The notes under the pieces: model-generated | The model's input: only the letters and a program-made list of their open reading frames with translations | Told to the model about the DNA's origin: nothing | Databases searched by the model: none | Part shown: piece by piece, positions 42,529 through 60,346 of the stretch | Layout: the number at the start of each line of letters is the position of its first letter | Position numbering within the stretch: position 1 is the first letter of the stretch | Assembly (NCBI GenBank): GCA_002011125.2 | Contig: MTMF02000009.1 | Location: forward strand, 968,989 to 1,032,988 | Length of the DNA stretch: 64,000 bases | Origin: Candidatus Hydrothermarchaeum profundi | GTDB lineage: Archaea; Hydrothermarchaeota; Hydrothermarchaeia; Hydrothermarchaeales; Hydrothermarchaeaceae | Direction of reading: 5' to 3' | Translations under genes and position numbers: made by a program

Positions 42529-43713
42529 ATGCGTTTTGCACATCTTTCAGATACTCACCTGGGCTATAGGCAATATAATCTCGATAAGAGAGAAGATGAT
42601 TTCTACAAGGCGTTTCATAAGTGCATAGACAAAATAATAGACGAAAAATGTGATTTTGTCATTCACTCAGGGGACCTATTCGATGAACCTAGGCCGCATA
42701 TTAGGGCCTTGGTAGAAGTCAGAAAAGCAATAGATAAACTTCATGATTCGGGCATAGAATTTATTACAGTAGCTGGCAATCACGACATTCTAATGAGAAA
42801 GGGGTCTCTAATACCTCACGCACTTTACAAGAGAATAAAAGTTCTTACACCAAAAAACCCAGTAAAAGTTATTGGAGATGTTTTTATCGGAGGGCTTCCA
42901 TATCACTCGAAAATACATATTAATGCATTAAAAGACTCCCTTAAACTTCTATCCAAGAAATCGCAAGAATATGGGAAAAGAATATTGGTCATGCATCAGG
43001 GGATAGATAAATATTTTGGGTTGGAATACGAGCTAAAGTTTGGAGATGTCCCTAAGGGTTTCGACTATTATGCTTTTGGGCATATTCATAAGAGAATAGA
43101 AGACGAATTTGAAGGGGGAAAAATAGTTTATCCAGGGTCTACTGAGATCTGGAGAGTAGATGAATTAGTTGATTTTGAAAAGAATAGGAAAGGCTTTGTT
43201 TTAGTTGATACCGATGATTTTTCAATTAAAAGAGTAGATATAGACATTAGGCCCTTCATAAAGCTAGAAGTTGAGTCAACTTTTGATCTTAACGAAATTA
43301 AGCATAGGATAGCAGGAAAGAAAAAACCTATTTTATATGTTACTGTTAAAACAGATGATCAGAGATATCAAACTATATATAGAGAGCTGAATAGGGAACT
43401 AAGTAACAAAGTTCTTTATATCGACATAAAAAAGAAAAATATTTCAAAAGAGGAAACTCGTTTTACAGAGGCAGTTGATTTAAGAGACCTCATCAATGAA
43501 ATGATGGAGGGTTATAAAGGAGAGGAAAAGGATTTTGCATACAGTCTTTTTAAAACACTTTCCTCTGGGGATATAGAAGCTGCTTTCACTTTAACTGAAG
43601 ATTTCTATCGGGTATGGGATTCTAATGCCCAGGATATAAAAAATAGAGGCAAGGCAGAGGCACCAAGTAAAATCAAAGAAGTATTCCAGAGCAGTTTGGA
43701 GGCTTATAGATGA
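42529..43713 (+). CDS. mre11: DNA repair nuclease Mre11
   Basis: HLSDTHLG, HSGDLFD, AGNHD, MHQ, FGHIH, YPGSTE. Confidence 0.94.
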   Translation: MRFAHLSDTHLGYRQYNLDKREDDFYKAFHKCIDKIIDEKCDFVIHSGDLFDEPRPHIRALVEVRKAIDKLHDSGIEFITVAGNHDILMRKGSLIPHALYKRIKVLTPKNPVKVIGDVFIGGLPYHSKIHINALKDSLKLLSKKSQEYGKRILVMHQGIDKYFGLEYELKFGDVPKGFDYYAFGHIHKRIEDEFEGGKIVYPGSTEIWRVDELVDFEKNRKGFVLVDTDDFSIKRVDIDIRPFIKLEVESTFDLNEIKHRIAGKKKPILYVTVKTDDQRYQTIYRELNRELSNKVLYIDIKKKNISKEETRFTEAVDLRDLINEMMEGYKGEEKDFAYSLFKTLSSGDIEAAFTLTEDFYRVWDSNAQDIKNRGKAEAPSKIKEVFQSSLEAYR

Positions 43714-46082
43714 TTATCCAAGAAGTGAGCATTAAAAACTTTAGGTCCCATAAGAATACCTCACTTCAGTTCAAAGAGGGGATACATGTTATTGTAGGAG
43801 ATAATGGCTCAGGTAAAACTAGCATCTTAGATGCTTTGAATTTTGCGCTATTCAAACAGAAGTCAAACAAGGAGGTAAATATAGATAACCTTATTAGAAG
43901 GGGGGCATCTGAGTGTATCATTTCCGTAGTATTCCACTCTAACGGTAGGAAGTATAAAGTGATTAGAGGCAGGAAAATCGGAAAAGCTTCAGGAAGTGCT
44001 ATTTATCGAATTGACAATGGAGAAACACTCATCGCAAGAGGAGAGGATGAAATAACCAAAGAAGTCGAAGAAATTCTCAAGGTTAATGGAGAGTTATTCA
44101 CTAGCGCTATTTACATAAAACAAGGAGAAATTGACAGTCTGATTTCGGCTACCCCTTCAACTCGCAAAGAGCATATAGGAAAACTCTTAGGCGCAGAAGA
44201 TCTGGAACGTGCTTATCAGAGGATGTATGATATTTTGAAGGAATATCGAATAAAATTAGAGGGCTATGCTTCTTTGCCTGAAGAAATAAATGAACGTAAA
44301 AATAGGATTAAAGAAGAAGAAAAGGAGATAGAAATACTAAGTCAAAAGTTAATTGAGGTAAAAAATATTCTAAAAAAGAAAAAAAAAGAATTTAAAAGCT
44401 TAGAAGAAAAAATAGGAAACTTGGAAAAACTGCAAAATCTAGAATCAGAAAAAAAGCTATTAGAAAGCAATTTAGATCATATAAGAGACAACATAGAGAA
44501 AATAACTTCGTCAGAATTAGAGCTTGAAAAGACTAAAGAAGCTCATAGACAATATATAAAATTAGAAGAGGAAATCGAAAGGCTTAGAAATGATAAAAAT
44601 AAACTGTTCGTTATAAAAGAGAGATTAAAATCATTAGAAAGGGAACTAGGCAGCTATGGTGAAAAAATCAAGGAGATAGATGATTTTTTTTCACAAAAGT
44701 TTGGCGATTTAGAAGATATTCTGCCTGAAAAAATTTCGACAATAGAACAGCTGAAGCAAGTGTTGGATAGGAAAATAAAAGACATCAAGGAGGAGAAGAG
44801 AAAAAAGGAAGAAGAGAAAGAAAGTATACTTTCAGAAATCAATGAATATAAAGGACAGAATACTGAGATCCTAAGGGCGAAGCAAGAGTTAGAAAAAGCA
44901 GCTGATAAATGTCCCACTTGCGGTCAAACGTTATCAGTTACTCATAAAAATAAACTTATCAGAGATTATTCTAGGAAGATACGGGAAAATCAAAACATTA
45001 TCTCTGAGAAGGAAGTAAAGATTGAGGAAATTAATGAAGAGATCAAGAGACTATCACACCTATTTGAAGAACTTAAAGGAGTTAACCTAGATCTATTGGG
45101 CTCATATGAAAAAGAAAAGAAAGAGGCAGAGAAAAAAAGAAATGAAATTAAGGAATCTATAAAAGAGCAAGAGGAAAAGCTTAGAACACTTCGGGATGTA
45201 GAGTCTTTTTTAACGCAAAAGGAAAATGAGAAAGAACAGCTTAGGGATAAGCATGAGAGATATATAAGCGCTAAAAGATTTCTGAGGGAGAGGTTACCGG
45301 ATAAAGAAAGGTATCTCAAAAAAATGGAGGTCATCAAAGCGAGGATAGAGAGAATCAAAGGCGAGATGGATAATATATTTGGGGTCATAGGATATGTGCC
45401 TAAAGCTGAGGAGCTTTGGAAAGTTAGAGAAGCTTATAGGAGTAAATGGGAAGAACTTACTAAGCTGGAAAAAATAAAGACAGAAAAAGAATCTATAATT
45501 TTAGAAAAAAAGAAAAAAATATCTATCTATAGAGATGAAATAGAAAAATTAACAAAAAGAAAAATAGAAGGCGAACAGCTCGCAAAGTTTGTTACTTTTC
45601 TAGAAAAAGTCCGCAGTTTTTTCCATAAGGATTGCTTACAAAAAGAGCTTAGAATACGGGCTAGGCCTTTAATAGAAAGGTATACTCGGGAAATATTTGA
45701 CCGTTTCAATCTACCCTACTCAGATTTAAAAATTACCGATGACTTCAATATTGAATTATATGGGCCTCATGGGAAAGAAACTGTTGATATGCTTAGTGGT
45801 GGCGAAAAAATTGCTGCAGCACTTGCACTTAGAATAGGTATTGCCAAAGCGTTATCAGGTCGAGCTATGGAGCTAATCATTCTTGATGAGCCGACTATTC
45901 ATTTAGATGCTCAACGGAGGCAGGAACTAGTAGAAATTATTAGAAGACTTTCCTCTATCCCGCAGACTATCGTAGTAACTCACGATAAAGAGTTTGAGCA
46001 AGCCGCCGATGTTTTAATCGCGGTTGAAAAAGTTAATGGCATCTCTACTGTTAAGCAACTTGAATTAATTCTGGAATCGTAG
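43710..46082 (+). CDS. rad50: DNA repair ATPase Rad50
   Basis: GDNGSGKTS, coiled coils with CPTCG zinc hook, LSGGE, ILDEPT, VTHD. Confidence 0.95.
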   Translation: MIIQEVSIKNFRSHKNTSLQFKEGIHVIVGDNGSGKTSILDALNFALFKQKSNKEVNIDNLIRRGASECIISVVFHSNGRKYKVIRGRKIGKASGSAIYRIDNGETLIARGEDEITKEVEEILKVNGELFTSAIYIKQGEIDSLISATPSTRKEHIGKLLGAEDLERAYQRMYDILKEYRIKLEGYASLPEEINERKNRIKEEEKEIEILSQKLIEVKNILKKKKKEFKSLEEKIGNLEKLQNLESEKKLLESNLDHIRDNIEKITSSELELEKTKEAHRQYIKLEEEIERLRNDKNKLFVIKERLKSLERELGSYGEKIKEIDDFFSQKFGDLEDILPEKISTIEQLKQVLDRKIKDIKEEKRKKEEEKESILSEINEYKGQNTEILRAKQELEKAADKCPTCGQTLSVTHKNKLIRDYSRKIRENQNIISEKEVKIEEINEEIKRLSHLFEELKGVNLDLLGSYEKEKKEAEKKRNEIKESIKEQEEKLRTLRDVESFLTQKENEKEQLRDKHERYISAKRFLRERLPDKERYLKKMEVIKARIERIKGEMDNIFGVIGYVPKAEELWKVREAYRSKWEELTKLEKIKTEKESIILEKKKKISIYRDEIEKLTKRKIEGEQLAKFVTFLEKVRSFFHKDCLQKELRIRARPLIERYTREIFDRFNLPYSDLKITDDFNIELYGPHGKETVDMLSGGEKIAAALALRIGIAKALSGRAMELIILDEPTIHLDAQRRQELVEIIRRLSSIPQTIVVTHDKEFEQAADVLIAVEKVNGISTVKQLELILES

Positions 46083-46557: not shown

Positions 46558-46612
46558 CCGAAATCTTTATATACTACTTAACGATAGTTAAGTGAATTTT
46601 AACGATTGTTAA
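46558..46612 (+). promoter_or_regulatory. aprA promoter (BRE/TATA) with two tandem TTAAC-N4-GTTAA operators
   Basis: CCGAAA-TC-TTTATATA (46558-46573), then TTAACGATAGTTAA (46578-46591) and TTAACGATTGTTAA (46599-46612), 21 bp apart. Confidence 0.7.
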
Positions 46613-48336
46613 GGAGTGTTTGTAAATTGGAAATCGATACCGACCTTCTCATTATAGGTGGTGGCACAGCAGGTTGCCTTGCAGCAGTTGAAGCTAAAGA
46701 GCTAGATCCAGATTTAAAAGTCACAATTCTAGAGAAAGCACATATAGAAAGAAGTGGATGTCTCGCAGGCGGGATAAATGCAATTAATGTATACATCCAT
46801 GAAGGAGAGTCTCCTGAAAGTTATGTAAGGTGGGCACGCTGGTATGCCATGGGTTTACTAAGAGAAGACCTAGCCTTAACTATGGCTAGAGAGATAAACA
46901 AGGCTATAGAGAAGGTCGAGAAGTGGGGCTTACCTATACCCAAGGATGATAAGGGCCGATATCTAAGAAGAGGGCGGTGGGGGATTCATGTTTTTGGAGA
47001 GTCTATAAAACCCATTCTCGCGAAGGCAGTAAAAAATGCTGAGGTGGATGTATATAATAGAGTAGTGGTAACAAATCTTCTGACTAAAAGAGAAAAGGTT
47101 ATTGGAGCGGTAGGGTTTGGAGTTAGAAATGGAGACTTCTACCTGGTAAGAGCGAAAGCTACTATCGTTGCAACAGGCGGAGCAGCAGGACTTTATAAAC
47201 CTAAAAATGATGGTGAAGCCCATCATAAAATATGGTATTCGCCTTTTAACACAGGAACAGGTTACGCGGTGGGGATCAGAGCTGGTGCTGAGATGACAAG
47301 CTTTGAAATGAGGTTTAATGCTATTCGTATAAAAGATGTAAACGCGCCGATTGGCACCATAGCTGTTGGTTTTAATGCACCGGTCATTAATTCTAAAGGT
47401 GAAAAATTTATGCAGAAAAACTATGCGCACTTAGGAGGCGAGGCAGCGCCAACTCCACTGCGAGTACATGGGCCAATGGAAGAAATAAGAAATGGTAGAG
47501 GACCATGTTATATAGATACTCGGAGGTTAAATGATAAAGACTTGAGACGTTTGAAAGAAGAATATCTCGACGAATATCCCACACTAGTATTGTATCTCGC
47601 TTCAAACGGTATAGATCTTAAAAATAGGTTTCTTGAGATCTACGGCACAGACCCATATATTGTTGGTGGGCATTGTAACGCGGGGTATTGGATAAATACT
47701 GATCGATCAACTACGTTAGAAGGTCTATATGCAATTGGAGATGTTGCTGGTGGAGCTAGCAGTAAGTTCGTGGGAGGTTGCTTCGCTGAGGGTATTATAG
47801 CAGCTCGCGCAGCTGTTGATTACATATGTAACAAAAATGCTTTGGAAGAAGTAGATCCAGAACTGGTAGATAAAGAGAGGTATAGAACTTTTGCTCCGCT
47901 ATGGAGATATAAAGAAGGAAGACATGGGCCTACTCCTAAGGAAATGGAACTAAGATTGCAAAAAGTTATGGATGAGTATGTGGGCGGTGTACATCAGTTT
48001 TACTTGATAACTGAAAAAGGGCTAGAAATAGCTAAAATTGAGATTAAGGCACTTAAAGAGCAAGCAGAGAATCTTATTGCAAGAGACCTTCATGAACTCA
48101 TGCTTGCGCATGAGTTAATAGATAGGTTAGATGTTGCTGAAGTGCTTATTCATCATCTCCTATATCGTAAAGAGACGAGATGGCCGGGATTCCAGGATCG
48201 GGTAGAGTATCCACATTTAGACGACAAGAATTGGCTGGTATTCGTAAACTCTAGAAAGAATCCTAAGACCGGAGAAATAGAGGTTTTTACAAGGCCTTAT
48301 GAGCAAATTGTCCCAGGGGATAGGTACAATCCATGA
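46606..48336 (+). CDS. aprA: adenylylsulfate reductase alpha subunit (short AprA-like flavoprotein)
   Basis: LIIGGGTAG, LEKA.IERSG, NAIN, ATGG, WYSPFNTG, EMRF, GGH, R.ETRWPG. Real start may be TTG 46627 after GGAG. Confidence 0.9.
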   Translation: MLRSVCKLEIDTDLLIIGGGTAGCLAAVEAKELDPDLKVTILEKAHIERSGCLAGGINAINVYIHEGESPESYVRWARWYAMGLLREDLALTMAREINKAIEKVEKWGLPIPKDDKGRYLRRGRWGIHVFGESIKPILAKAVKNAEVDVYNRVVVTNLLTKREKVIGAVGFGVRNGDFYLVRAKATIVATGGAAGLYKPKNDGEAHHKIWYSPFNTGTGYAVGIRAGAEMTSFEMRFNAIRIKDVNAPIGTIAVGFNAPVINSKGEKFMQKNYAHLGGEAAPTPLRVHGPMEEIRNGRGPCYIDTRRLNDKDLRRLKEEYLDEYPTLVLYLASNGIDLKNRFLEIYGTDPYIVGGHCNAGYWINTDRSTTLEGLYAIGDVAGGASSKFVGGCFAEGIIAARAAVDYICNKNALEEVDPELVDKERYRTFAPLWRYKEGRHGPTPKEMELRLQKVMDEYVGGVHQFYLITEKGLEIAKIEIKALKEQAENLIARDLHELMLAHELIDRLDVAEVLIHHLLYRKETRWPGFQDRVEYPHLDDKNWLVFVNSRKNPKTGEIEVFTRPYEQIVPGDRYNP

Positions 48337-48342
48337 GGTGAT

Positions 48343-48660
48343 ATGTTGACCATCGTGATACACCATGAAAAATGCACTGGGTGCAAAGGCATGAAAGAAC
48401 CTCTATGTGTAAAGCTCTGCCCAGGAGACCTTATAATGATAAAAAATGAGAAGTCCTTCATCCGAGACCCCGGAGATTGTTGGGATTGTATGGCATGCGT
48501 AAAATCATGCCCTTACGGCGCTATTGAAACCAAGCTTCCTTATGAGCTGGGTTATAAAGATGCGCATTTGATTCCCAAGAGAAAAGGGAAGATAATAGTC
48601 TGGGAGCTTGTTTACTCAGACGGCCGAAGGGAAGTATTTGAGAGGCAGGTGAGATTATGA
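48343..48660 (+). CDS. aprB: adenylylsulfate reductase beta subunit (2x[4Fe-4S])
   Basis: CTGC.....PLCVKLCPGD and CWDCMACVKSCP, the AprB-type cluster spacing; lacks the long C-terminal tail. Confidence 0.88.
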   Translation: MLTIVIHHEKCTGCKGMKEPLCVKLCPGDLIMIKNEKSFIRDPGDCWDCMACVKSCPYGAIETKLPYELGYKDAHLIPKRKGKIIVWELVYSDGRREVFERQVRL

Positions 48661-50450
48661 GGCAAACTCCAGTTGGAGGCAGATTAGTTAACAGAGTATT
48701 AAAGGGCAGAGATAAAGTGAGAGCTAAAGAAGCAGCGGCTAACCTCCCAAAAATCAAGATTGAAAATGATATTATAGTCACGCTTGAGATGATAGCTACT
48801 GGAGTGTTGAGTCCGTTAGAAGGATTTCAGGGATACGAAGATTATAGAAGCATATTAGAAGATAAAAGACTTGCTGACGGTACACCCTGGACAATCCCCC
48901 AAATATTCGCTCCGAATATAGAGTCAACTAAGAGTCTAGACGAGATTAAGGAAGGGGAGGATATAGCTCTTATTGGAAAATCAGGAGAACCCATTGCTTT
49001 ACTACATTTGGAGGAGAAGTTTACTATCGATAGAAAAGAAATGGTAGAATATATTTTTGGTACGAGTGATAAATCTCACCCAGGAGTTAATTATGTTTAT
49101 AGGAAGGGAGAAAGGGCTTTAGCAGGAAAGATAGATCTAATACACAGACCTTCATGGGGCCCATTTGAGAAATATAGACTTGAGCCTAAAGATACTTGGG
49201 AAATATTTAAGGAAAGAAACTATGAAACAGTAGTAGGATTTCAAACAGCTAACCCTCTCCATCGGGGCCATGAGTATTTGCAGAAATGTGCATTGGAAAT
49301 ATTTGATGGGATATTTATTAACCCAATAGTTGAAACCACCCGACGGGCGTATTTTAGAAATGAATTCAGGATAAAAGCATACGAGGAGGCTATCAAGGTC
49401 TACTATCCGGAAGATAGAGTAGTTTTTGCACCGCTCAGACTAATAATGCAATATGCTGGACCAAGAGAAGCAGTAATGCATGCCTTGATAAGGAGAAACT
49501 ACGGATGCACGCATTTTATTTTGGGAAGAGATCATGCAGGATACAAAGATTATTACCCGAAATATGCATCTCAAAAAATATTTAAAGAGTTTGAAGAGGA
49601 TGAGCTTGGGATAACCCCCTTATTCTTCCGAGAAGCCTTTTATTGCGCTCGTTGCGCTAATCTAGCTACAGAGAAGACATGTCCTCATGGTAAAGAATAC
49701 CATATTACTATGAGCGCCTCTATAATCCAGGATATTTTTAGGTATGGCTATCTCCCTCCAAAAGAAGTAATGCGGCCAGAAGTTTCACAGATAGCAATAC
49801 AGGGAATCCAGCCAAAAGGGCTTGATGAGACTGGACATGCATTAGAATCTCCTGGAGCAGCAATAAAAGGCATGTTTCCATTCTATATAACCCACTACAG
49901 GCTTGGAGGATATAAAAGGGACAGACCGCTAGACGTTAATTCCCTTACAGTTGCGGATATCCGCAGGGCGCTTCTTGATGTAAGGATTAACGCGAGTAAG
50001 ATATACGAAGAAATCTATGAGACGATTGCTTATTATTTCGATATATCCCGGGATTTGGTTGCTAATCGTAGAGGAGAGGCTTTAGAACAGTCGGTGGATA
50101 GGCAAATTAGATTGATTAAAACTTTGAAGGAAAAAGTTGAGGGTGCACCAGAATCTGTACAAGACCCATTTATGTATCAAGATAAAAACGAGGCCAAAAA
50201 AGAATTAGATATAGCTCAAAAAATATTAAACGACCTTTTCAGGTATAGGCCCAAGGATTTTGGTATAAGAATCTGGAATCCACTAGAATATGAGAGGTAT
50301 CGACATTCTTCGATTGCAACCTCTTCAGTTTATCCGAATATAATCTACGATAAAATGAACCGGGCTAGCATAGAGGACGATGCGAAACCTAATGCATCTA
50401 TCGCCGTCGCTGAAGCAGATTGGAATTATGAAAAGAGGGTAAGAAAATGA
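48657..50450 (+). CDS. sat: sulfate adenylyltransferase-like protein (QTAN variant) with ~215-aa C-terminal extension
   Basis: SPLEGF, FQTANPLHRGHEY, YAGPREA..HA.IR.NYGCTHFI.GRDHAG, Zn site CARC..CPH, RPEV. Confidence 0.85.
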   Translation: MRQTPVGGRLVNRVLKGRDKVRAKEAAANLPKIKIENDIIVTLEMIATGVLSPLEGFQGYEDYRSILEDKRLADGTPWTIPQIFAPNIESTKSLDEIKEGEDIALIGKSGEPIALLHLEEKFTIDRKEMVEYIFGTSDKSHPGVNYVYRKGERALAGKIDLIHRPSWGPFEKYRLEPKDTWEIFKERNYETVVGFQTANPLHRGHEYLQKCALEIFDGIFINPIVETTRRAYFRNEFRIKAYEEAIKVYYPEDRVVFAPLRLIMQYAGPREAVMHALIRRNYGCTHFILGRDHAGYKDYYPKYASQKIFKEFEEDELGITPLFFREAFYCARCANLATEKTCPHGKEYHITMSASIIQDIFRYGYLPPKEVMRPEVSQIAIQGIQPKGLDETGHALESPGAAIKGMFPFYITHYRLGGYKRDRPLDVNSLTVADIRRALLDVRINASKIYEEIYETIAYYFDISRDLVANRRGEALEQSVDRQIRLIKTLKEKVEGAPESVQDPFMYQDKNEAKKELDIAQKILNDLFRYRPKDFGIRIWNPLEYERYRHSSIATSSVYPNIIYDKMNRASIEDDAKPNASIAVAEADWNYEKRVRK

Positions 50451-51307
50451 TAGATCACGAGAATATAAGGATGGAAATCCAACAAAAGCAAGAGGGATAT
50501 GGAGTATTGAGAGCACCAACGTTTGGTAGGATAACATCTCAACAGCTTAAAACGCTAGCTAAAATCTCTAGAGAATTTGGTGATGGCTACGCATTACTCA
50601 CCATGAGGAAAGGATTCGAGATACCTTGGATAAATAGAGAGAATTTTGGGAAAGCCCTCTCAGAGATTGAAAAAACGGGTCTAAAAGTAGGGTCTAGTGG
50701 GAATACAGTAAGATCCATACTTCCCTGTGCTGGTCAGGACAGGTGTCCTTTTGACATACTGGAGGTAGGTGTGTTAACCAAGAAAATAAGAAATGAACAC
50801 TATGGCAGACCTATGCCTATGAAATTTAATATAACTCTTTGTGGTTGTCCGAACTATTGTACTCATCCATATCTGAGTGATATAGGGATAATAGGCAGAG
50901 CACGCCCTAGAGTGAACGAGGACAAATGTATAGGTTGTGGTCAATGTGTAAGACTCTGCCGCGGAGATGATGGTGGAGCACTACGTCAAGTAGATACGAA
51001 TGCACCTGAAATTGATTACGAAAAGTGTATAGAGTGTGGGTGGTGTATAAAAAACTGCCCTACTGGTGCAATGGAAGCAGAGAAGCAAGGATGTAGTATA
51101 TTGGTTGGAGGCAAAGGCGGAGCAAATCCAAAACTTGGTGTAGAGTTAATTAGAATAATATCTATAGAAAAGGTAGGCCGTGTTTTAGAGAGAATCGTTC
51201 AATATACGGAGGAATATTCTAGTAAAGGTGAAAGATTGGCTGATGTAATTGAAAAATATTCGTTTGAACACTTTAAGAATTATGTGTTAGGTGAAATCGA
51301 TGACTAA
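50447..51307 (+). CDS. siroheme sulfite/nitrite reductase-like subunit 1 (Dsr-LP/AsrC-like) with 2x[4Fe-4S] ferredoxin insert
   Basis: CAGQDRC (CX5C) and GCPNYC (CX3C) siroheme-cluster ligands; CIGCGQCVRLC and CIECGWCIKNCP; VGGKGG; GERL. Confidence 0.88.
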   Translation: MIDHENIRMEIQQKQEGYGVLRAPTFGRITSQQLKTLAKISREFGDGYALLTMRKGFEIPWINRENFGKALSEIEKTGLKVGSSGNTVRSILPCAGQDRCPFDILEVGVLTKKIRNEHYGRPMPMKFNITLCGCPNYCTHPYLSDIGIIGRARPRVNEDKCIGCGQCVRLCRGDDGGALRQVDTNAPEIDYEKCIECGWCIKNCPTGAMEAEKQGCSILVGGKGGANPKLGVELIRIISIEKVGRVLERIVQYTEEYSSKGERLADVIEKYSFEHFKNYVLGEIDD

Positions 51308-52001
51308 AGTTAGAGGAAGAATTGGCTTATTAGCTCAAAGGCAGAAAGATTACGTAACCATCAGGCTAAGGATACCTTTGGGAAAACTTACGGCAGAGCA
51401 GATGGAGGGAATATCCCAGATCATTGAAGAATATGGAGACGGCTATGCTATACCGACTATTCGTAAAAGCCTAGAAATACCTTGGGTCAGATTTGAGGAT
51501 TCTAATAAAGTTCTAAAAGAGTTAAGGAAAATGGGTCTCTCGGCAGGCTCATGCGGGAGAAAAGTGAGGACAATAGTGGCATGTGCGGGATTAGGACATT
51601 GCATCCATTCTCATAGAAATCTAGAGAAAATGTACTATAAGCTCCTCGGAAATTATTACATGAAAGATACTCCCACTAAATTTAAAATATCCCTCTCCGG
51701 GTGTCACCTTGCTTGTAACCATCCTTATATTAATGACTTTGGAATTATTGCCACTGAAGATGGCTTTTCAATCCTTGTAGGTGGAAAGGGTGGTAGACAC
51801 CCCCAGTTTGGAAAGCTGATAGTTGAAGGAGTATCTGAGGAAGAGGTATTCAATATTCTTGATAAAACCTTGGAATATTTCAGAAAGTATGCTCAAGGCA
51901 GAGAGAGGATTTATGAAGTTATAAAAAGAAATGGCGTAGACCATTTTAGAGGATACGTGTTAGAGGGGGTGAAAGCTTGGCCAAGAGATTCGAAGAATTA
52001 A
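51300..52001 (+). CDS. siroheme sulfite/nitrite reductase-like subunit 2 (no ferredoxin insert)
   Basis: IRLRIPLG, VRTIVACAGLGHC (CX5C), PTKFKI, SGCHLAC (CX3C), VGGKGG. ATG at 51300 after AGGTGA. Confidence 0.88.
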   Translation: MTKVRGRIGLLAQRQKDYVTIRLRIPLGKLTAEQMEGISQIIEEYGDGYAIPTIRKSLEIPWVRFEDSNKVLKELRKMGLSAGSCGRKVRTIVACAGLGHCIHSHRNLEKMYYKLLGNYYMKDTPTKFKISLSGCHLACNHPYINDFGIIATEDGFSILVGGKGGRHPQFGKLIVEGVSEEEVFNILDKTLEYFRKYAQGRERIYEVIKRNGVDHFRGYVLEGVKAWPRDSKN

Positions 52002-53026
52002 AAAAAGAAGTGATAGACAAAGGTTTTTGTGTACACTGTGGTGCTTGTAGCGCATTTTGCAATCGCATAAAGCTTAATGCGTCTCCACAGCTTGTCGGGA
52101 AATGTGTGGAGAGCTGTTCATCTCCTTATGGAACTGATGGGGTATGTTATGAGCATTGTCCAATGGTTAAAAGCTTTGATGAAAAACATATCTTTCAAAG
52201 GAATACTTCCGATCCATTAGGGATATATATTTCATTAAAGTCAGCTCGTGCTCATGATAATAGTCTTAACGGTGTTCAGGATGGAGGTGTTGCAACAGCC
52301 TTGCTTAAGGCAGCATTTGAAGATGGAGAGATAGATGCAGCTATCGTGGTAGGTAGAGATGAGCTATGGAGAAGTCAACCTAAAATAGCGTGGTCGGTTA
52401 AAGACTTAATAGGTACTTCTGGGTCTAAATACACTGAAACGCCTGTTATAGAACTCGTAGGTAAACTTTCTCGAGAAGGCGCAAGTAGTGTCGCAGTTGT
52501 CGCTGTGCCATGTCAAATACAGGCGCTCCGGAATTTAGAATACGGGCTTCTCTATCCAAATGGGTTCTCCCCTTACTCAGACATGATGCTGTACACGATA
52601 GGCTTGTTCTGTTCAGGTGTATTCAACTATAAAGAACTTGTAAATAGACTTGATGTAGACTTGAAATATGTTGATAAAATGGACATAAAGGATAGTAAAT
52701 TTAAAGTGGAAGGGAAAATTACCAAAACTTTGCCTCTTAGTAGAGTAAAAAAAGCTTTATTACCCGCATGCAAATATTGCAGGGACTACACCGCAAGACT
52801 CGCTGACATATCTTTAGGCTCTGTAGGGTCCCCAAAAGGTTGGACTACAGTAATCGTTAGAAATCCAAATGGAAGCTGGCTGTTAACAAATGCTAAAAAT
52901 TTAGGATTAATAGAGGTGAAGCGAGGTCTAAGTGAAAATGTACTAAGAACTCATGTTGATAAAAGAATAAAAAATGTGAGTAAGGAATGTATGAAAGCTA
53001 ATGAGATTCCGCCTTCATTTAAGTAA
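51977..53026 (+). CDS. F420-interacting FrhB/FpoF-family flavoprotein with N-terminal ferredoxin (Fsr N-half-like)
   Basis: CVHCGACSAFC...CYEHCP, QDGGVATALL, GSKY, PCQIQALR, IGLFC, CKYC.DY...ADIS.GSVGSP.GWTTVIVR. Confidence 0.9.
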   Translation: MAKRFEELKKEVIDKGFCVHCGACSAFCNRIKLNASPQLVGKCVESCSSPYGTDGVCYEHCPMVKSFDEKHIFQRNTSDPLGIYISLKSARAHDNSLNGVQDGGVATALLKAAFEDGEIDAAIVVGRDELWRSQPKIAWSVKDLIGTSGSKYTETPVIELVGKLSREGASSVAVVAVPCQIQALRNLEYGLLYPNGFSPYSDMMLYTIGLFCSGVFNYKELVNRLDVDLKYVDKMDIKDSKFKVEGKITKTLPLSRVKKALLPACKYCRDYTARLADISLGSVGSPKGWTTVIVRNPNGSWLLTNAKNLGLIEVKRGLSENVLRTHVDKRIKNVSKECMKANEIPPSFK

Positions 53027-53375
53027 AACAGGCATCGCAATCGTTTGGCACTATGCTGGCTTCTTTATGCGGGCCGCAAAGAGTTTTATCTGATTTTGCA
53101 GCTTCACATATTCTACATATCTCTTTATATGGGTTATGTTTTTCTCCAGAGATTATCTTATCAGCAAACTCAGATATAGCGGCTTTAGCATTTTCTTTGA
53201 GTTCAATTTTTTTCCCACGCTTTCCTTTCAAATATTGAGAAACAGCCGCTTCTGTAACCCCCATTACTGATGCCACTTCCTTCTGACTCATCCCGCGGCT
53301 GATTAGTTCTTTTGCTAGGTCTGATTTTATTGCCGGTAAAACATACCATACTACTAATTCACAGGGAGCTTTCAT
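53019..53375 (-). CDS. HTH transcriptional regulator with Cys-rich C-terminus (COG2522-like)
   Basis: PCE.....LPAI...LAKEL...GMSQKEVA..MGVT.AAVSQYL.GKRG; ICRIC...C..H....C.AC. Confidence 0.85.
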   Translation of the reverse strand: MKAPCELVVWYVLPAIKSDLAKELISRGMSQKEVASVMGVTEAAVSQYLKGKRGKKIELKENAKAAISEFADKIISGEKHNPYKEICRICEAAKSDKTLCGPHKEASIVPNDCDACFT

Positions 53376-53393: not shown

Positions 53394-53468
53394 TTAACGC
53401 CTATTAATTTTTTTGAATAAAAAATCTTTAATTATGATAATACATACGTCAGCTTTCATAGGCGTTAG
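53394..53468. promoter_or_regulatory. degenerate TTAAC-N4-GTTAA sites upstream of the regulator gene
   Basis: TTAACGCCTATTAA (53394-53407) and its inverted partner TTCATAGGCGTTAG (53455-53468); they share a perfect 10-bp inverted core, TAACGCCTAT/ATAGGCGTTA. Confidence 0.5.
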
Positions 53469-53838: not shown

Positions 53839-54321
53839 ATGAAACCAAAGAAAATAATAACCATATCAGTCGTGGTGGTTCTTCTCCTATTTGTATACTA
53901 CTCAATGAATGCTGCTCCTCTAATAAGCGATGAAAAGTATACTTACATTAGCGGTTTGAGATGGTACAATACCTTCGAAGAAGGTCAAAGGGTTGCGTTA
54001 GAGCAAAATAAACCTATCTTTATTTATTTCTGGGCGATATGGTGCACATACTGCGAAAAATTACATACTGAAGTTTATCCAAACCCGGAAATCAATAGGA
54101 TCTTAAAAGAAGACTATGTACTTGTAGCGGTGGATCTAGATACTAACAAAAAAGATGCAGCTAGATTTGGAGCAACGTATCCTCCAAAGCTTGTGTTCAT
54201 TACGCCAGATGGTGAAATAATAACTGAAATTGGAGGTTATGTTCCAGCGGAATCTCTACTTCCTGTTCTACAAAATGTAAAAGCCTTCTATCAAAATAGA
54301 ATTAGTTCCGGTGGTGGTTAA
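53839..54321 (+). CDS. membrane-anchored thioredoxin-fold protein (CcmG/SoxW-like)
   Basis: N-terminal TM, WAIWCTYC, cis-Pro region YPP..F..PDGE.I..I.GY. Confidence 0.88.
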   Translation: MKPKKIITISVVVVLLLFVYYSMNAAPLISDEKYTYISGLRWYNTFEEGQRVALEQNKPIFIYFWAIWCTYCEKLHTEVYPNPEINRILKEDYVLVAVDLDTNKKDAARFGATYPPKLVFITPDGEIITEIGGYVPAESLLPVLQNVKAFYQNRISSGGG

Positions 54322-56667
54322 GTGAATCTAGGTAATCTATTGCTATATAGTGCATTTTCCATCGGGTCTTTGATTATTTTATTATTATTGATAAATCTAA
54401 TCAAGAACATTCAAGTTGAAAGATATGTTCAATGGCTAGTGAGAGCTTTTTTTATGATATTACTCGCGGATATGAGTCTGCTTACTTACTATTTCATCGT
54501 GAGCGATATTTCAGTAAATTACGTATGGACATTTACGAGTAAGTATCTCCCACTTTTATACAAATTATCTGGCGTATTGGCTGGACAACAAGGAACACTA
54601 TTATTCTGGGCATTTTTAATAAGTATAAGTGCTCTATGGATTAATGAGAGAAAAGAGTATAGCGATTTTATAAAAAAAGTCCAGATAATTGTATTGTTAC
54701 TAGGATTATTCTTTATTGCTTTAACGATCAAAGAATCACCTTTTATCACGATATATGATCTCTATCCAGACTTACCGAGAGATTTCCTTCCAGAAGACGG
54801 CGCTGGACTTAATCCCCTTCTAATCGACCCTTGGATGGCTGTTCATCCTCCGGTAATTTTTATAGCTTATGCAACTATGACTATTCCTTTTGCAGTCGCC
54901 GTAGTTTACCTTATTAAGTCTATAAAAGAGGACACCTTAAAAGTGTATAGTGAATGGAGTCATATTGTGACCTTCTGGTGCAGGATTTCTTGGCTTTTTC
55001 TTACATGGGGGATCGCGGTCGGCGGTTTTTGGGCCTATAAAGTACTCGGTTGGGGCGGTTACTGGGCTTGGGATCCTGTGGAAACATCTTCTCTTATCCC
55101 GTGGATCCTTTTGACAGGAGCTCTCCACGCTCTATCCGAAAATAGGAAAAAAAAGGAGAGTTATAATATATTAGCTCCAGTGCTGGTTGCGTTGTCTTTT
55201 TCACTAGTGGTATACGCTACATTAGTTACTAGAAGTGGATTTTTTGAATCCGTGCATGCCTTCAGCACCGGGCAAACAGGATTTTATCTATTAATTTTGG
55301 TTGTAGTGAGCATACTGGTTTCTCTCATTTTAGGAAGTATAAAGTACGTTAAGAGAGTTGATAGGCACGTAGAAGATATTGATAATGGAGAGATTACTCT
55401 GGTGAATAGGACAAATATATTCTATCTTGCAATATTATTGTTTGTAATATTAACTTTTATATCCTTCTGGGGGATCACATTTCCGGCGTTGACAAAACTA
55501 GCTATGGGGAAAAAAATTGGTATGGGTATTTCGTTTTTTAATATTTGGAGTTATCCTTTTATAATATTGCTAATGCTTTTCGGCGGACTAGGGCTAAATT
55601 ACAAGCATTCTGAAAAAAAGAAGCAACTACGAGTATTCGGTTTATTTATCCTCATTACTTTGATAGCGGCTGTAATTAAGCCCTCAGAATCATGGAAAAT
55701 TGTAGAATATTCCGCCATCATCAATCCCGAAAAGCCATTTCTATATAGGCTGATTGGCGGTGCCTCCCCCTTAAGCATAATACCCCCTTCTATTTACCTG
55801 ACTTGGGGTGCGAGTGAAAGGCTTTTGCGAAGATTTAAGAGTAAGTCCATGGAGCTAAAAATAAAGGAAGTAGGGATTTTTATCATACATGTCGGAGTTG
55901 TTTTAATCATAGCTGGTTCTGTAGTTAGTACTCTTTTCGATAAAGAGTTCAGTACTAGAGTCACTATAGGAAATTCTGAGCTTGTACGGATTGAAGGGAC
56001 CCCTTATGCGGTTAAACTTCTTGGCTTTGACACAGAGGTAGTATATATAGAAGATTCTGCGAGTAATGATATACCGGGGGATAGTCTAGATGAATTTTAC
56101 ACGAAAATCGGGGAAGAGGATGTCTATTTAGTGCATGGTAAGGTAGAGGAAACTGTACAAACGGAACATAATACTTATATGAAACTTGTAGATAACGGCA
56201 GAGAGTTATGGGTCGCTACTAATAGGGTAGACATCCCTAAGGGTGCCCTAGTTGTACTATCTGGAAATGTGATGTTTGATTTTGCAAGTCCAACTTTAAA
56301 CAGAGTTTTCGATATAATACTTTTCGCTCCGCATGTAGAGGTATATAGTATGGAGCCTGAAAGATATTCGACAACAGAACTAGTTAAAGTAGCGGTATAC
56401 AATGGCCATAACAAAATAGGGGAGGGTACTGCTAAGTCGATTACCTATAAAAATGGAAATGTCAACAAGGTAATGATTGATAGATCATTGACTAAGGATG
56501 TTTATGTTATCTACACAGGAAAGAACGGCCAAGAAATACCTTTAACAATTAAGATTAAGCCGTACGTAAGCTGGACTTGGGTAGGTGTGGTGTTGTTTTC
56601 GGTGGGCATACTTTTTATATTATTTTTTGATCCGGTTGTTAAAGAGAGGAGGTATCAAGCTGAATAG
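54322..56667 (+). CDS. ccmF: cytochrome c heme lyase CcmF with inserted OB-fold (NrfJ-like) domain
   Basis: AGQQGTLLFW, GLNPLL.DPWM..HPP, WAY..LGWGGYWAWDPVE, VTRSG...SVHAF, HVG, KP...W.W.G. Confidence 0.92.
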   Translation: MNLGNLLLYSAFSIGSLIILLLLINLIKNIQVERYVQWLVRAFFMILLADMSLLTYYFIVSDISVNYVWTFTSKYLPLLYKLSGVLAGQQGTLLFWAFLISISALWINERKEYSDFIKKVQIIVLLLGLFFIALTIKESPFITIYDLYPDLPRDFLPEDGAGLNPLLIDPWMAVHPPVIFIAYATMTIPFAVAVVYLIKSIKEDTLKVYSEWSHIVTFWCRISWLFLTWGIAVGGFWAYKVLGWGGYWAWDPVETSSLIPWILLTGALHALSENRKKKESYNILAPVLVALSFSLVVYATLVTRSGFFESVHAFSTGQTGFYLLILVVVSILVSLILGSIKYVKRVDRHVEDIDNGEITLVNRTNIFYLAILLFVILTFISFWGITFPALTKLAMGKKIGMGISFFNIWSYPFIILLMLFGGLGLNYKHSEKKKQLRVFGLFILITLIAAVIKPSESWKIVEYSAIINPEKPFLYRLIGGASPLSIIPPSIYLTWGASERLLRRFKSKSMELKIKEVGIFIIHVGVVLIIAGSVVSTLFDKEFSTRVTIGNSELVRIEGTPYAVKLLGFDTEVVYIEDSASNDIPGDSLDEFYTKIGEEDVYLVHGKVEETVQTEHNTYMKLVDNGRELWVATNRVDIPKGALVVLSGNVMFDFASPTLNRVFDIILFAPHVEVYSMEPERYSTTELVKVAVYNGHNKIGEGTAKSITYKNGNVNKVMIDRSLTKDVYVIYTGKNGQEIPLTIKIKPYVSWTWVGVVLFSVGILFILFFDPVVKERRYQAE

Positions 56668-57382
56668 TGAGCCATCATTTGTCTTAGCATTCCTTGCTGG
56701 ACTCTTAACGGTTACTACCCCTTGTGTCATCCCAATCCTCCCCCCAATGTTAGCCGGATCTATCGGTCATAAGCTTAGACCTTTTTTTATTGTATTAGGA
56801 AGCTCCATAACGTTTACCTTAATGGGGGGAGCTTTCGCAGCAATAGGCCTCTTAGCGTCAGGGGTTACAGAATATATGAGACTATTTTTTATTTTCTTTA
56901 TCATAGCTTTTGGAGCAGTAATGGTGGATGAAGATATCAATAAAGTATATACGAAATACGCAACAGTTGTAGTCAATAGATTATTAAGTCGAAAAGGAAG
57001 TAATTCCTCAAGAAACTTTCACCCACTAGTAGGAGCTTTTGTGTTAGGGCTTTCTCTGGGTATAGTGTGGATTCCATGCGTCGGCCCTATATTGGGGGCT
57101 GTACTTGCATATGCTTCAACAACAGCTAACTTAGCTAAGGGGTCTCTTTTGTTGATGACGTATTCTTTTGGGCTTGGACTTCCGATGCTTGGGATAGCTT
57201 ACGGGGGCAAATATGCTTCTGTAAAAGTAGAATGGGTTAAGGTCCATTCTATTACGATAAGAAAGATTGCTGGATGGGTAATTATCCTCACAGGGATAGC
57301 TATGCTCTTTGGTCTTGATAGACTTGTACAAGCTGGTCTTACTCCGTATTTCCCGAGTTTTGAAGAGAGGTTGCTAAAATGA
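56660..57382 (+). CDS. ccdA: CcdA / DsbD transmembrane thiol-disulfide transporter
   Basis: PCVIPILP and W.PCVGPILG; about 6 TM. Start uncertain (CTG 56660 after GGAGGT, or TTG 56636; track start 56585). Confidence 0.88.
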   Translation: MNSEPSFVLAFLAGLLTVTTPCVIPILPPMLAGSIGHKLRPFFIVLGSSITFTLMGGAFAAIGLLASGVTEYMRLFFIFFIIAFGAVMVDEDINKVYTKYATVVVNRLLSRKGSNSSRNFHPLVGAFVLGLSLGIVWIPCVGPILGAVLAYASTTANLAKGSLLLMTYSFGLGLPMLGIAYGGKYASVKVEWVKVHSITIRKIAGWVIILTGIAMLFGLDRLVQAGLTPYFPSFEERLLK

Positions 57383-58392
57383 GTGAAAAGGGAGACCGCT
57401 TTAAGATAAATTGGGGGCATAGGTATCTTATAATTGTGGCAGGGCTTTTCTTTATTGCTGGATTCTCATCAGGGTATGTGTTCTTTAGTGATGGAGAAAA
57501 TGAGAAAATTTGTCCATTTAGTTTTAATATAACCCTGTCTAATGAACTCTTTGCTGATGTCATTGGTGAAAAGGCAGCGAGTTATGTAGATGAAAAATTT
57601 CTAAGGCCGCAAGGAGCTTCAGGGGAACTGGTAAAAGTTGAGAGCTATGGGGATAGTCTCTATAGAGTTATAATACGTGCTACTAAGGAGGGTGTTACTC
57701 AGACGATTTCGTTACTCGCTACAAGAGATGGTAAGTTAATACTACTAGGTGAGGGCGGAGGCGTGGTCGAGATTCCAGAATCCTATGAAGCAAACCTCAC
57801 TTTTAGGGAGGTAGCTAAAACTGATGCTATCTACATAACCTCAGGATTGGAAATAAGACCAGAGATGGCCGCATATATTCGGGGATCAAAAGATGCTCCT
57901 ATAACTTTTGTAGAATTCAATGATTTTCAGTGTCCATTTTGTAAAAGGTTCAGGGATCAGAGTTTAGATCTTATTCTAACAAAATATGAAGGAAAAATCC
58001 GTTATGTTCTTTTAGATTTCCCTATTACTTCAATTCATCCTCAAGCACCTCTGGCACATATTGCCGCTAGGTGTGCGGGTGAACAAGGAAAATACTTCGA
58101 ATATCATAACAAGCTCTTTGCTAAACAAGAAAGTTGGTCTAGGATGCCTCCAGATTCTGTAGAAGAGATAAATGAGTTTGAAAGCTACGCAGTTGAGCTT
58201 GGATTAGATGAGGTGAAGTTTTCTCAATGCCTAAACTCAAGAAAGTATGAGAACGCGGTATTATCAAACATGGAGATAGGAGCTAGAGCGGGTGTTACAG
58301 GAACTCCAACTTTCTTTATAAACGGTCAGAAAGTCGGTGGAGCGCAACCTTATCAAGTCTTCGAATCTGTCATAGAATCTCAACTAAGTTAG
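57379..58392 (+). CDS. membrane-anchored DsbA-family oxidoreductase
   Basis: N-terminal TM, G..DAPIT.VEF.DFQCPFC, FP...HP.A..A..AARCA.EQGK, GVTGTPTFFING. Confidence 0.92.
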   Translation: MSEKGDRFKINWGHRYLIIVAGLFFIAGFSSGYVFFSDGENEKICPFSFNITLSNELFADVIGEKAASYVDEKFLRPQGASGELVKVESYGDSLYRVIIRATKEGVTQTISLLATRDGKLILLGEGGGVVEIPESYEANLTFREVAKTDAIYITSGLEIRPEMAAYIRGSKDAPITFVEFNDFQCPFCKRFRDQSLDLILTKYEGKIRYVLLDFPITSIHPQAPLAHIAARCAGEQGKYFEYHNKLFAKQESWSRMPPDSVEEINEFESYAVELGLDEVKFSQCLNSRKYENAVLSNMEIGARAGVTGTPTFFINGQKVGGAQPYQVFESVIESQLS

Positions 58393-58435
58393 GATATTTA
58401 GAAAAAAATCAAAATTTCATAAACATAAATCACCG

Positions 58436-58470
58436 GAAATTTGGGTAAAAGTTGGTGTAAATTCTGGAAA
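58436..58470 (+). promoter_or_regulatory. phased AATTTGG-like direct repeats upstream of the DUF1573 operon
   Basis: AATTTGG (58438), AAGTTGG (58449), AATTCTGG (58460) at an 11-bp period. The 11-mer GAAATTTGGGT is identical to 53497-53507; TTAAATAA follows. Confidence 0.5.
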
Positions 58471-58489
58471 ATGTTCTTAAATAATCATT

Positions 58490-59332
58490 TTGAGAGAAAA
58501 ACTAGTGGTCGGGACTGATTTGGCTTCAGAGTCGGAAAAAAAAGGAAGGAGAAGGTATATAATATTTCTTCTGGTATCCTTTTTGATAGGGAGTATAGGA
58601 GGATTAGTTCTATTCACTTATTTAAGTCCGGATACCCTTAAAACTTCCGCTTCTGGTAAAGTATATGCGGAATCTCAGCCTGTAGGAAGTATGGTAAGTT
58701 ATACCAATCCGGAGGAAATTTATAAGCTCTTTATCTGTCCTTGCTGTGGTAGTACAATAGACGCATTATGTTGTGAGTCAGCTATAGAACGAAAAGCCTA
58801 TGTTGACGGACTCTTAGATGCGGGATTAGATAAGACAGAGATAATGGTTAAGATGACTTCTCGCTATGGATTGGATTCTCTCGCAAGCGATTCATTGAAA
58901 ACCGAGGTTAGGGAGATTCTAATCGAAAGAGCCCCCGAAGATAGGCCACAGCTAGTAATTTACCCGAAAGCCTATGACTTGGGAAATGTGAGTGTTTCAG
59001 GCGGAGTTGTCACAACTCTTGTCCACTTAACAAACAAGGGAAAAACAAATCTGGTGATTGATGATATGGAGACTTCTTGTGGTTGTACTTCTGCTTCTAT
59101 TGTTTATGATGGTGTTGAGGGTCCTCTTTTTAATATGAGGGAGCATGGTAATAATCCTGTGGGGTGGAGTGTTAGTATTAGGCCGGGTGATACTGCTATC
59201 TTGAAGGTTATTTATGATCCGATGGTGCACCCTGATCTCAGAGGAACGGTAACTAGGCTCGTCACTATATATTCTAACGACCCAATTGACCCACAGACGA
59301 CTTTTAAATTGAGATTGAATCAGGTCGATTAA
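58490..59332 (+). CDS. CcmH-like domain fused to a DUF1573 (Ig-like, SCGC) domain
   Basis: TM; FICPCCGSTID..CC..A.ERK.YV..LL.AG..K.EI...M..RYG resembles the CcmH/CycL N-domain; then N.G...L.I....TSCGCT...I.PG.T..L.V.YD. Confidence 0.7.
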   Translation: MREKLVVGTDLASESEKKGRRRYIIFLLVSFLIGSIGGLVLFTYLSPDTLKTSASGKVYAESQPVGSMVSYTNPEEIYKLFICPCCGSTIDALCCESAIERKAYVDGLLDAGLDKTEIMVKMTSRYGLDSLASDSLKTEVREILIERAPEDRPQLVIYPKAYDLGNVSVSGGVVTTLVHLTNKGKTNLVIDDMETSCGCTSASIVYDGVEGPLFNMREHGNNPVGWSVSIRPGDTAILKVIYDPMVHPDLRGTVTRLVTIYSNDPIDPQTTFKLRLNQVD

Positions 59333-59912: not shown

Positions 59913-59916
59913 GATA

Positions 59917-60339: not shown

Positions 60340-60346
60340 TTTTATT

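Follow-up and report, generated by a model that had tools for sequence, protein, structure and literature searches.

Does a compact archaeal operon encode a complete route from sulfate to sulfide driven by F420H2, and is its sulfite reductase, with the F420-oxidising and siroheme parts on separate chains, a forerunner of the methanogens' fused F420-dependent sulfite reductase (Fsr)? The question is raised by six genes of Candidatus Hydrothermarchaeum profundi, a deep-sea archaeon not yet in culture, namely aprA, aprB, sat, sir1, sir2 and a gene for an F420H2-dehydrogenase subunit (here frhB), which lie in a window (the whole stretch of DNA analysed) of 64,000 nucleotides on contig MTMF02000009.1, positions 968,989 to 1,032,988. 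The operon is conserved and has mostly been reported before; the new part is its predicted F420-coupled, unfused and asymmetric sulfite reductase. Sequence comparisons suggest that this enzyme is a convergent, unfused analogue of Fsr and neither a member nor an ancestor of that family, as tree tests reject a sister relation to Fsr for each of the two halves and the ligand Glu180 of Fsr is absent.

The six open reading frames (ORFs) were verified on the + strand (Table 1) in a genome that is 97.65% complete, labelled G000 in a comparison set of 38 genomes of the phylum (G numbers; L numbers denote loci and P numbers proteins). A 6-nt gap separates aprA from aprB, while aprB/sat and sat/sir1 overlap by 4 nt each, sir1/sir2 by 8 nt (with ATG 51300) and sir2/frhB by 25 nt. 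For aprA, TTG 46627 is the more probable start, being preceded by a Shine-Dalgarno sequence (46613-46618), while TTG 46606 sits within an operator-like palindrome; for sir2, ATG 51300 is more probable, as orthologues begin there.

AprA scores above the NCBIfam cut-off of PRK06854 (721 vs. 557 bits) and below that of TIGR02061 (487 vs. 642 bits), and AprB has TIGR02060 as best family, below its cut-off. Sat exceeds the cut-offs of PRK04149 and TIGR00339. Sir1 and Sir2 each contain the NIR_SIR_ferr and NIR_SIR domains and fall below the TIGR02912 cut-off. The F420 subunit combines an N-terminal ferredoxin with FrhB_FdhB_N/C and stays below all four NCBIfam cut-offs, including FrhB and FpoF; its best solved relatives are F420-dehydrogenase chains, Fsr's N-terminal half (Fsr-N) among them. 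AsrAB are NAD(P)H-type input subunits, and none of that type is encoded in the operon. The ORFs, overlaps and family matches agree with the six coupled genes of a preliminary description of this DNA, the recurrence of the arrangement in related genomes speaks against chance, and a check of the window proteins found qmo, dsr, cysC and cysH to be missing from the operon and its flanks, as that description had claimed. The sat and aprA genes are the sole copies in the genome.

Table 1. Features of the sulfur operon and its surroundings (window positions).
Feature	Position	Strand	Evidence
BRE/TATA-like promoter (TFIIB recognition element and TATA box) of the operon	46558..46573	+	read from sequence
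Palindromic operator-like site 1, TTAAC-N4-GTTAA	46578..46591	.	exact copy
Palindromic operator-like site 2, same 14-mer, other orientation	46599..46612	.	exact copy
AprA, short (~570 aa) flavoprotein of the clostridial/MtPAPSR type	46627..48336 (ORF extendable to 46606)	+	PRK06854, PDB match
AprB, 2x[4Fe-4S] subunit, 105 aa, lacking canonical AprB's long C-terminal tail	48343..48660	+	
Sat variant, 597 aa: QTAN (Ala198), ~170-aa helical extension, decayed TusA tail (~50289-50450)	48657..50450	+	
Sir1, AsrC/Dsr-LP group III siroheme subunit	50447..51307	+	residue table, PDB matches
Sir2, siroheme paralogue of Sir1, without ferredoxin insert	51300..52001 (ORF extendable to 51291)	+	
F420H2-dehydrogenase subunit (N-terminal ferredoxin + FrhB fold)	51977..53026	+	ligand count, trees, predicted interface
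Cys-rich helix-turn-helix (HTH) protein, convergent to the operon	53019..53375	-	HTH_3 match
Palindrome copy with one mismatch, upstream of the HTH gene (autoregulation proposed)	53394..53407	.	

The asymmetry of the enzyme lies in its two siroheme proteins. Sir1, whose best PDB matches are Fsr's C-terminal half (Fsr-C), keeps the cluster cysteines and the trait of AsrC-like proteins and group III Dsr-LP, CX5C..CX3C with an inserted 2x[4Fe-4S] ferredoxin, but has Asn128 at the equivalent of Lys462. Sir2 has lost the ferredoxin insert and retains all four anion-binding residues (R25, R93, K130 and K132 in the numbering of the 236-aa ORF); together with the Arg388 equivalent, which is kept in both proteins, it holds the full set of the Fsr residues Arg355, Arg423, Lys460, Lys462 and Arg388. 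Since Sir2 nests among insert-bearing orthologues, the loss of the insert is secondary. In Fsr structures, one protomer supplies the siroheme and anion residues, and its partner the coupled cluster and ferredoxin relay (PMC10229431). Because Sir1 lacks Lys462 and Sir2 the ferredoxin, complementary parts have been lost, and the only complete combination would be the Sir2 pocket with the Sir1 cluster and relay. This analogy predicts a single active site, as in DsrA/DsrB, with Sir1 as putative donor of cluster and electron relay (DsrB-like) and Sir2 as putative substrate-binding donor (DsrA-like). Complementary losses in sir paralogues were not met in the literature searched and are new here.

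The relatives preserve a series of stages. A single intact sir gene is found in G010, G018, G023, G025, G027 and G029; G009 and G017 carry a sir pair with Arg423 replaced by Lys in sir1; in G011, Lys462 is lost and both ferredoxins are kept; and the ferredoxin is lost in G000 and, independently, in P0072, which lies on a 933-bp contig with no partner gene on it. The sir duplication, whether single or repeated, falls inside the operon clade.

As in DsrAB, siroheme subunits are duplicated, with roles predicted to be split between an Arg/Lys pocket and a cluster with relay. Unlike DsrAB, the operon pair arose by a recent duplication within the AsrC/Dsr-LP III family, keeps Arg388, has CX5C-CX3C in both subunits and would receive direct F420 input without a two-Cys DsrC. 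Both proteins fall below the TIGR02064 and TIGR02066 cut-offs and lack the Thr388 of DsrA, and the DsrC-like neighbour in G009 and G017 has one C-terminal Cys, in contrast to the two-Cys DsrC partner.

An unrelated tandem pair of Dsr-LP-like genes occurs at L035-L041 in family f2 (G004, G021, G024, G026, G028, G031, G033). In the two pairs whose residues were compared (G024, G028), Thr replaces Lys462 and CX3C replaces CX5C in either copy, with no F420 subunit adjoining, and the f2 pair is probably not a sulfite reductase. Further siroheme-protein relatives (P0067, P0073, P0089, P0092, P0095, P0146, P0156, P0171 and P0179) are fused to ThiS, JAB, Cys/Met pyridoxal phosphate (PLP) enzyme, TusA or NAD(P)H flavoprotein domains. 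By its domain composition, this family appears repeatedly to recruit sulfur carriers and electron-input modules.

The F420 subunit keeps 11 of the 12 Fsr-N cluster ligands (the cysteines), whereas the Glu180 loop is deleted. In a three-chain structure prediction, with the F420 subunit as scored partner of Sir1/Sir2, it scored 0.75, and the best of three controls 0.00. Among solved complexes, 116 of 157 attain the docking mark, as do 2 of 215 mismatched pairs; these rates are only a rough guide for a three-chain job. At least 74% of contacts were common to the runs, the partner pLDDT (predicted local distance difference test) was at least 84, and replacing Sir1 reduced the score to 0.00. In the predicted interface, the ferredoxin and loop 189-203 of the F420 subunit lie on the ferredoxin insert of Sir1, as in Fsr. 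The predicted dock and the co-occurrence of the genes support the claim of an unfused F420 subunit that goes with the siroheme genes.

This module is kept in part of the phylum. The F420 subunit adjoins one or two siroheme genes in 10 of the 38 genomes, as separate ORFs in 10/10, in keeping with the earlier expectation of an unfused subunit beside Dsr-like genes. As the F420-subunit profile was built from those same ten carriers, the informative part is the absence of an eleventh orthologue among the 38 genomes (next score 314 bits, vs. at least 555). The locus of G011 contains the same six genes and the HTH gene; G018, G027 and G029 have aprA-aprB-sat-sir-frhB, and G010 and G023 frhB-aprA-aprB-sat-sir. 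G009 and G017 have sir1-sir2-frhB with no apr in the locus, and no short aprA was found in these genomes (96% and 57% complete). In G019 the locus is cut after a sir2 fragment, and in G025 the sir orthologue lies at a contig end. Hence aprAB-sat is common to the operon of G000 and six other genomes in two gene orders, and sir-frhB, the reverse of the Fsr domain order, predominates. Of the best 80 GTDB loci for the F420 subunit, nine correspond to these operons; in the DNA compared for the remaining 71, which is often short, no siroheme reductase is seen. A set of 80 metagenome loci matching the sir alignment contributes three further cases of sir with frhB (L199, L200, L202).

In trees, the F420 subunit and sir genes of G000 group with family f9, and neither was found in three family mates of G000 (62-82% complete). 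Transfer of the operon into the lineage of G000 is therefore likely; since its GC content and GC at third codon positions (GC3) are not clearly different from those of neighbouring genes, transfer is inferred from the trees only.

Neighbouring genes in the relatives belong to sulfur relay and biosynthesis: TusA fused to Sat, JAB protease, ThiF, Thi4 and a single-Cys DsrC/TusE-like protein. The latter is encoded directly 3' of the F420 subunit gene in G017 (L026:5446-5706) and G009 (L027:1253-1513), and is followed in G017 by genes for LarE-like, PLP-enzyme, Thi4 and ThiF proteins.

The Sat variant retains the HxxH and GRDHAG motifs, but its QxRN motif reads QTAN; extra Arg residues in a nearby loop may compensate for this. 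The motif could be matched in 117 of 120 long-Sat homologues, and the arginine is absent from every one of them, which makes the change a family trait and not decay. In G010, G011 and G023, the orthologue has an intact Pfam TusA domain at its C terminus. Comparison of the Sat extension with the Atlas gave no named family (best feature score 0.76, structure matches under the bar), and the single-sequence fold of the G011 extension had low confidence (pLDDT 48). The long-Sat family (window 48657-50450; P0335-P0454), with its unannotated ~170-aa helical domain, QTAN or ITGAN for QxRN, and in some members a terminal TusA, is widespread in Bacillaceae, Acidobacteria, Methanosarcinales and Hydrothermarchaeales.

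AprA was placed by HMM (hidden Markov model) scores, PDB matches and loop residues. Its best PDB match is the 3'-phosphoadenosine 5'-phosphosulfate (PAPS) reductase of Methanothermococcus thermolithotrophicus (MtPAPSR; 8a8o_A, 627 bits), with the adenosine 5'-phosphosulfate (APS) reductase of A. fulgidus at 407 bits. The short-AprA family is large, since 2331 of the 7989 proteins scored fall at E <= 1e-150; an aprA search of five Hadarchaeota/other genomes gave no match. At the positions linked to PAPS specificity, the operon AprA has Arg/Trp/Gly, the Methanococcales enzyme Lys/Arg/Ser, and 119 homologues mostly Arg/Trp/Asn. Canonical AprAB-Qmo systems are recognised by the TIGR02061 cut-off, Gln145 and adjoining qmoABC, none of which is found here. 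No APS kinase above cut-off was detected in G000, where the only Pfam candidate was a weak P-loop kinase match of another kind and was rejected, and the same holds for 5 of 7 short-AprA genomes (81-98% complete). Since the genome lacks APS kinase, APS is most likely the direct substrate of AprAB, the simpler reading of these sequences.

A closely similar known pathway, sulfate assimilation in M. thermolithotrophicus (PMC10322725; 8A8O), likewise uses Sat, an AprAB-fold reductase (AprA 52% identical) and an F420-dependent sulfite reductase without Qmo. Unlike it, the operon lacks APS kinase, PAP (3'-phosphoadenosine 5'-phosphate) phosphatase and transporter (compare L279), its AprA has Trp121/Gly122 for Arg121/Ser122, and its predicted sulfite reductase is unfused and encoded in the same operon.

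From the observed genes, residues, synteny, trees and genome inventory we infer complex formation, electron path, substrate, direction and regulation as follows. On balance, the operon is probably a repressor-controlled assimilatory unit leading from sulfate via APS and sulfite to sulfide. Sat would make APS from sulfate, short AprAB would reduce it to sulfite without Qmo, and the three-chain enzyme of F420 subunit, Sir1 and Sir2 would reduce sulfite to sulfide with F420H2. Electrons would pass from flavin adenine dinucleotide through the three [4Fe-4S] clusters of the F420 subunit to the ferredoxin insert of Sir1, and then via Sir1's siroheme-coupled cluster to the siroheme held, with sulfite, by the Arg/Lys residues of Sir2; the second siroheme site would be structural. 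The enzyme was probably put together from an F420 dehydrogenase of the HdrA-associated kind and a gene of the AsrC/Dsr-LP III family; the latter would then have been duplicated and its roles split.

An assimilatory function is suggested by Arg388 in both Sir proteins, an assimilatory six-electron trait (PMC10229431), as opposed to Thr at position 388 in the DsrA copies of G000. It is also favoured by the sulfur-relay neighbours and by the nine other carriers, in whose families no dsrA was found (f7 0/2, f8 0/6, f9 0/2; completeness 57-96%), nor dsrC in f8 and f9 (0/8). Relatives with canonical AprA (G001, G006, G012 and G020) have qmoABC adjoining aprAB, together with sat. This observation also supports the account, as does the presence in G000 of cofE and cofG for F420 synthesis, of a SulP transporter and of an F420 subunit gene next to cdhA. 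In this genome, where Qmo queries from G001 and G006 matched only HdrA/MvhD/HdrC-type genes, the route is thus probably kinase-free and assimilatory, as first proposed.

Several points weigh against this account. Sat activity is not assured, because the QxRN arginine that contacts sulfate is absent (PMC6775978, PMC10504309, PMC6286981 or PMC6607087). AprA has Gly in place of Gln145, which blocks PAPS, and Arg at 118 and 120, so that with Lys120, Arg121 and Ser122 named for PAPS specificity (PMC10322725) only Trp121 is of the APS type; moreover, APS kinase is encoded elsewhere in two of the seven short-AprA genomes (G027, G029). Type II QmoAB resemble HdrA (reported in the group PMC6286981, PMC6607087, PMC6775978 or PMC10504309), and the HdrA/MvhD/HdrC-type genes of G000 could serve in a type II Qmo role, in which case HdrA-type clusters may feed AprAB. 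G000 encodes, outside the operon, two dsrAB pairs and dsrC, which could also consume sulfite. Glu180, the cluster-3 ligand of group I Fsr, is missing from the F420 subunit, although M. kandleri-type Fsr likewise has no Glu at this column. Because the Fsr structure is solved (7np8/7npa), the docking pass may reflect memory of it and would then show likeness, not binding. Finally, group I Fsr also reduces nitrite (PMC10229431).

G000 also encodes HdrA clusters, a TauE transporter and four PAPS_reduct-family genes known by family match alone. In one of its dsrAB pairs, DsrB2 has Asn at the Lys462 position. NorB/NorC-like genes, read from translations, lie immediately 3' of one pair (L001:12036-14104; G000:C9:124035-126103). 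A further cluster (L005, G000:C9:296756-309000) encodes HdrD-like, F420 dehydrogenase, long HdrA, MvhD and HdrA2 proteins; it is divergent from another F420 subunit and cdhA, a possible CO:F420 reductase.

Respiratory or electron-sink sulfate reduction, with the module as a high-flux outlet for F420H2, as in Kato's 'Sat-Apr-Asr' idea, or as sulfite source for DsrAB/DsrC/DsrMK, is unlikely but deserves consideration, as the genome's sole sat and aprA coexist with dsrAB and dsrC, such sat/apr genes were taken as dissimilatory in published work (PMC6759336), and the F420 subunit beside cdhA could give F420H2 from CO. However, neither Qmo in the genome nor a membrane subunit in the operon was found, no dsrA was found for 9/10 carriers, and a role in biosynthesis under regulation is in line with the sulfur-relay neighbours, Arg388 and the putative dedicated operator. 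Because the genome, despite two dsrAB pairs and dsrC, is without Qmo or APS kinase, the operon is weak evidence for sulfate respiration.

It is improbable that nitrite or some other oxyanion is the substrate of the siroheme pair, or that the module runs in reverse towards sulfite with a merely regulatory link to Sat/AprAB. The four sulfite-binding residues are kept in Sir2 and the single-gene forms, unlike in group II Fsr, which is a nitrite reductase; in each of two gene orders the sir genes keep their place next to sat and aprAB, and Fsr-type sites are reported as unidirectional (PMC10229431). In favour of such a function are the nitrite activity of group I Fsr, the altered Sat motif, and NirB as best NCBIfam match of Sir2, far below the cut-off.

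A true pre-fusion relic, i.e. the two-subunit intermediate that Susanti and Mukhopadhyay proposed, or else a product of Fsr fission, is very improbable and already largely refuted by the trees. Such an intermediate is predicted in the literature (PMC3448663), Sir1 matches Fsr-C best in the PDB, the domain layout is that of Fsr-N and group III Dsr-LP, and the predicted interface copies Fsr. Yet the F420 subunit nests among HdrA/MvhD-associated dehydrogenases (100/99 support), including a paralogue of G000 itself, and not in the FpoF/FrhB clades (FqoF was not labelled separately in these trees). Approximately unbiased (AU) tests rejected its placement with Fsr-N with p 0.0012 (48 rows, LG+G4) and p 0.0056 (26 rows, mixture model). 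The sir genes form their own clade, and placement with Fsr-C was rejected with p 0.026 (51/205 rows), a weaker result with a bootstrap that had not settled. Tree rows were hand-picked subsamples of 205 candidate stretches, and trees were unrooted (FastTree and subsampled IQ-TREE). P0179, considered an Fsr by its length, is a pyridine-nucleotide fusion according to Pfam and was excluded from the AU test. With these rejections, the Glu180 loop absent and the gene order mostly reversed, the claim of a pre-fusion Fsr is not supported.

The enzyme nevertheless resembles group I Fsr of Methanococcales (7NP8, 7NPA; PMC10229431), in which a ferredoxin-FrhB module feeds a Dsr-like siroheme domain via an inserted ferredoxin, and shares with it the four anion residues, Arg388 and 11/12 N-half cluster ligands. 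Group I Fsr, however, has its N and C halves fused in one chain and is a homotetramer with all sites active, while the operon encodes three chains with a predicted one-site heterodimer, no Glu180 loop, and halves of separate phylogenetic origin. A separate flavin electron-input subunit next to a siroheme subunit is also found in AsrABC and in the putative haloarchaeal aFsr, which uses an aSir-type subunit unlike that of the operon (PMC3448663). A fused Fsr-like gene beside a free Dsr-LP gene on the opposing strand was seen on the metagenome contigs L244 and L231, the former with an additional free FrhB-like gene.

That AprAB, and not the siroheme pair, is the main partner of the F420 subunit, replacing Qmo, is highly improbable, since G009 and G017 keep the subunit with the sir pair and without a detected short aprA, and the subunit is predicted to dock on Sir1, even though frhB is the first gene, directly 5' of aprA, in G010 and G023 and an F420H2 oxidase has been suggested as partner for MtPAPSR, whose donor is unknown (PMC10322725). 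A shared role, in which the F420 subunit serves the sulfite reductase and also donates electrons to AprAB, is conceivable but doubtful. More doubtful still is the full combination: an independent replay in Hydrothermarchaeota of F420 coupling without fusion and of a DsrA/DsrB-like one-site heterodimer, with every stage kept (single, duplicated, Lys lost, ferredoxin lost), and all eight electrons supplied by F420H2, through a subunit also feeding AprAB, without Qmo, DsrC or APS kinase.

The TATA box and two palindromes upstream of aprA are consistent with the single promoter proposed earlier. A similar TATA box lies upstream of aprA in G018, G027, G029 and L200 and of sir1 in G009 and G017. The TTAAC-N4-GTTAA 14-mer has only two exact copies in the 2.19-Mb genome (~3 expected by chance), both between TATA and aprA; in G009 and G017 its sole copy lies just upstream of sir1, and in G011 and G019 exact copies precede the HTH gene at the same distance as in G000. 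As the pattern itself is not rare (24 of 38 genomes, with similar control counts), the evidence lies in where it is placed. Four of the 38 genomes (G000, G009, G011, G019) encode an HTH orthologue, all of them with the operon or its sir-frhB part. In family f8 there is no HTH orthologue, and the site is absent from the five f8 operon promoters examined and from L200. The HTH gene and palindromes are probably a dedicated regulatory switch of the operon. A sigma-70 promoter scan gave 20 sites (20.6 expected) with a consensus unsuited to archaea. In another archaeon, a related HTH gene (L203:4300-4780) with a divergent promoter containing two TTAAC-N3-GTTAA-like palindromes lies upstream of a Dsr-LP gene.

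Contrary to the preliminary description, the gene set was in large part on record. A Sat-AprAB-AsrC/Fsr-C cluster of Ca. Hydrothermarchaeota was reported by Kato in 2019, with aprA, aprB, sat, asrC and asrC consecutive in one metagenome-assembled genome (MAG) that also has two dsrA, and its function in sulfate reduction was left speculative (PMC6759336). L056, from a MAG of that study, is an orthologous locus. That cluster has the same aprA, aprB and sat with one or two asrC/Fsr-C genes, but F420 subunit, regulator and asymmetry are not mentioned in the passages and supplement text searched, the latter giving no match for 'Frh' (PMC6759336). Split syntenic frhB and asrC appear in a supplementary row for one Hydrothermarchaeota assembly in Padalko 2024, whose main text, as far as consulted, does not name the phylum (PMC11237513), and Susanti 2012 defined the Dsr-LP groups, proposed that the aFsr of haloarchaea consists of two subunits, and put forward a hypothetical intermediate, likewise with two subunits (PMC3448663). 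The literature search met with neither the asymmetry nor the regulator, nor with the F420 link described as an enzyme; outside it lay subscription papers, the PMC10504309 supplements and other Hydrothermarchaeota genome papers.

F420-coupled sulfite reduction was thus probably invented more than once. The operon offers a small, soluble and testable model, with natural intermediates, for the conversion of a homodimeric sulfite reductase into a heterodimer with one site, a change thought to have given rise to DsrAB. Its F420 subunit is a candidate electron donor for AprAB-fold reductases that work without Qmo, and the operon warns that short-type sat and aprAB alongside dsrAB in a genome do not alone indicate sulfate respiration.

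Elsewhere in the window, a cytochrome c maturation-like cluster at 53839-61561 encodes thioredoxin-like, CcmF/NrfE, DsbD/CcdA-like and DsbA-like proteins, and a second ccmF is located near dsrAB at G000:C9:735326-737764. The nurA-herA genes and mre11-rad50 (34746-37237 and 42529-46082) are separated by ligase-like and two-component genes.

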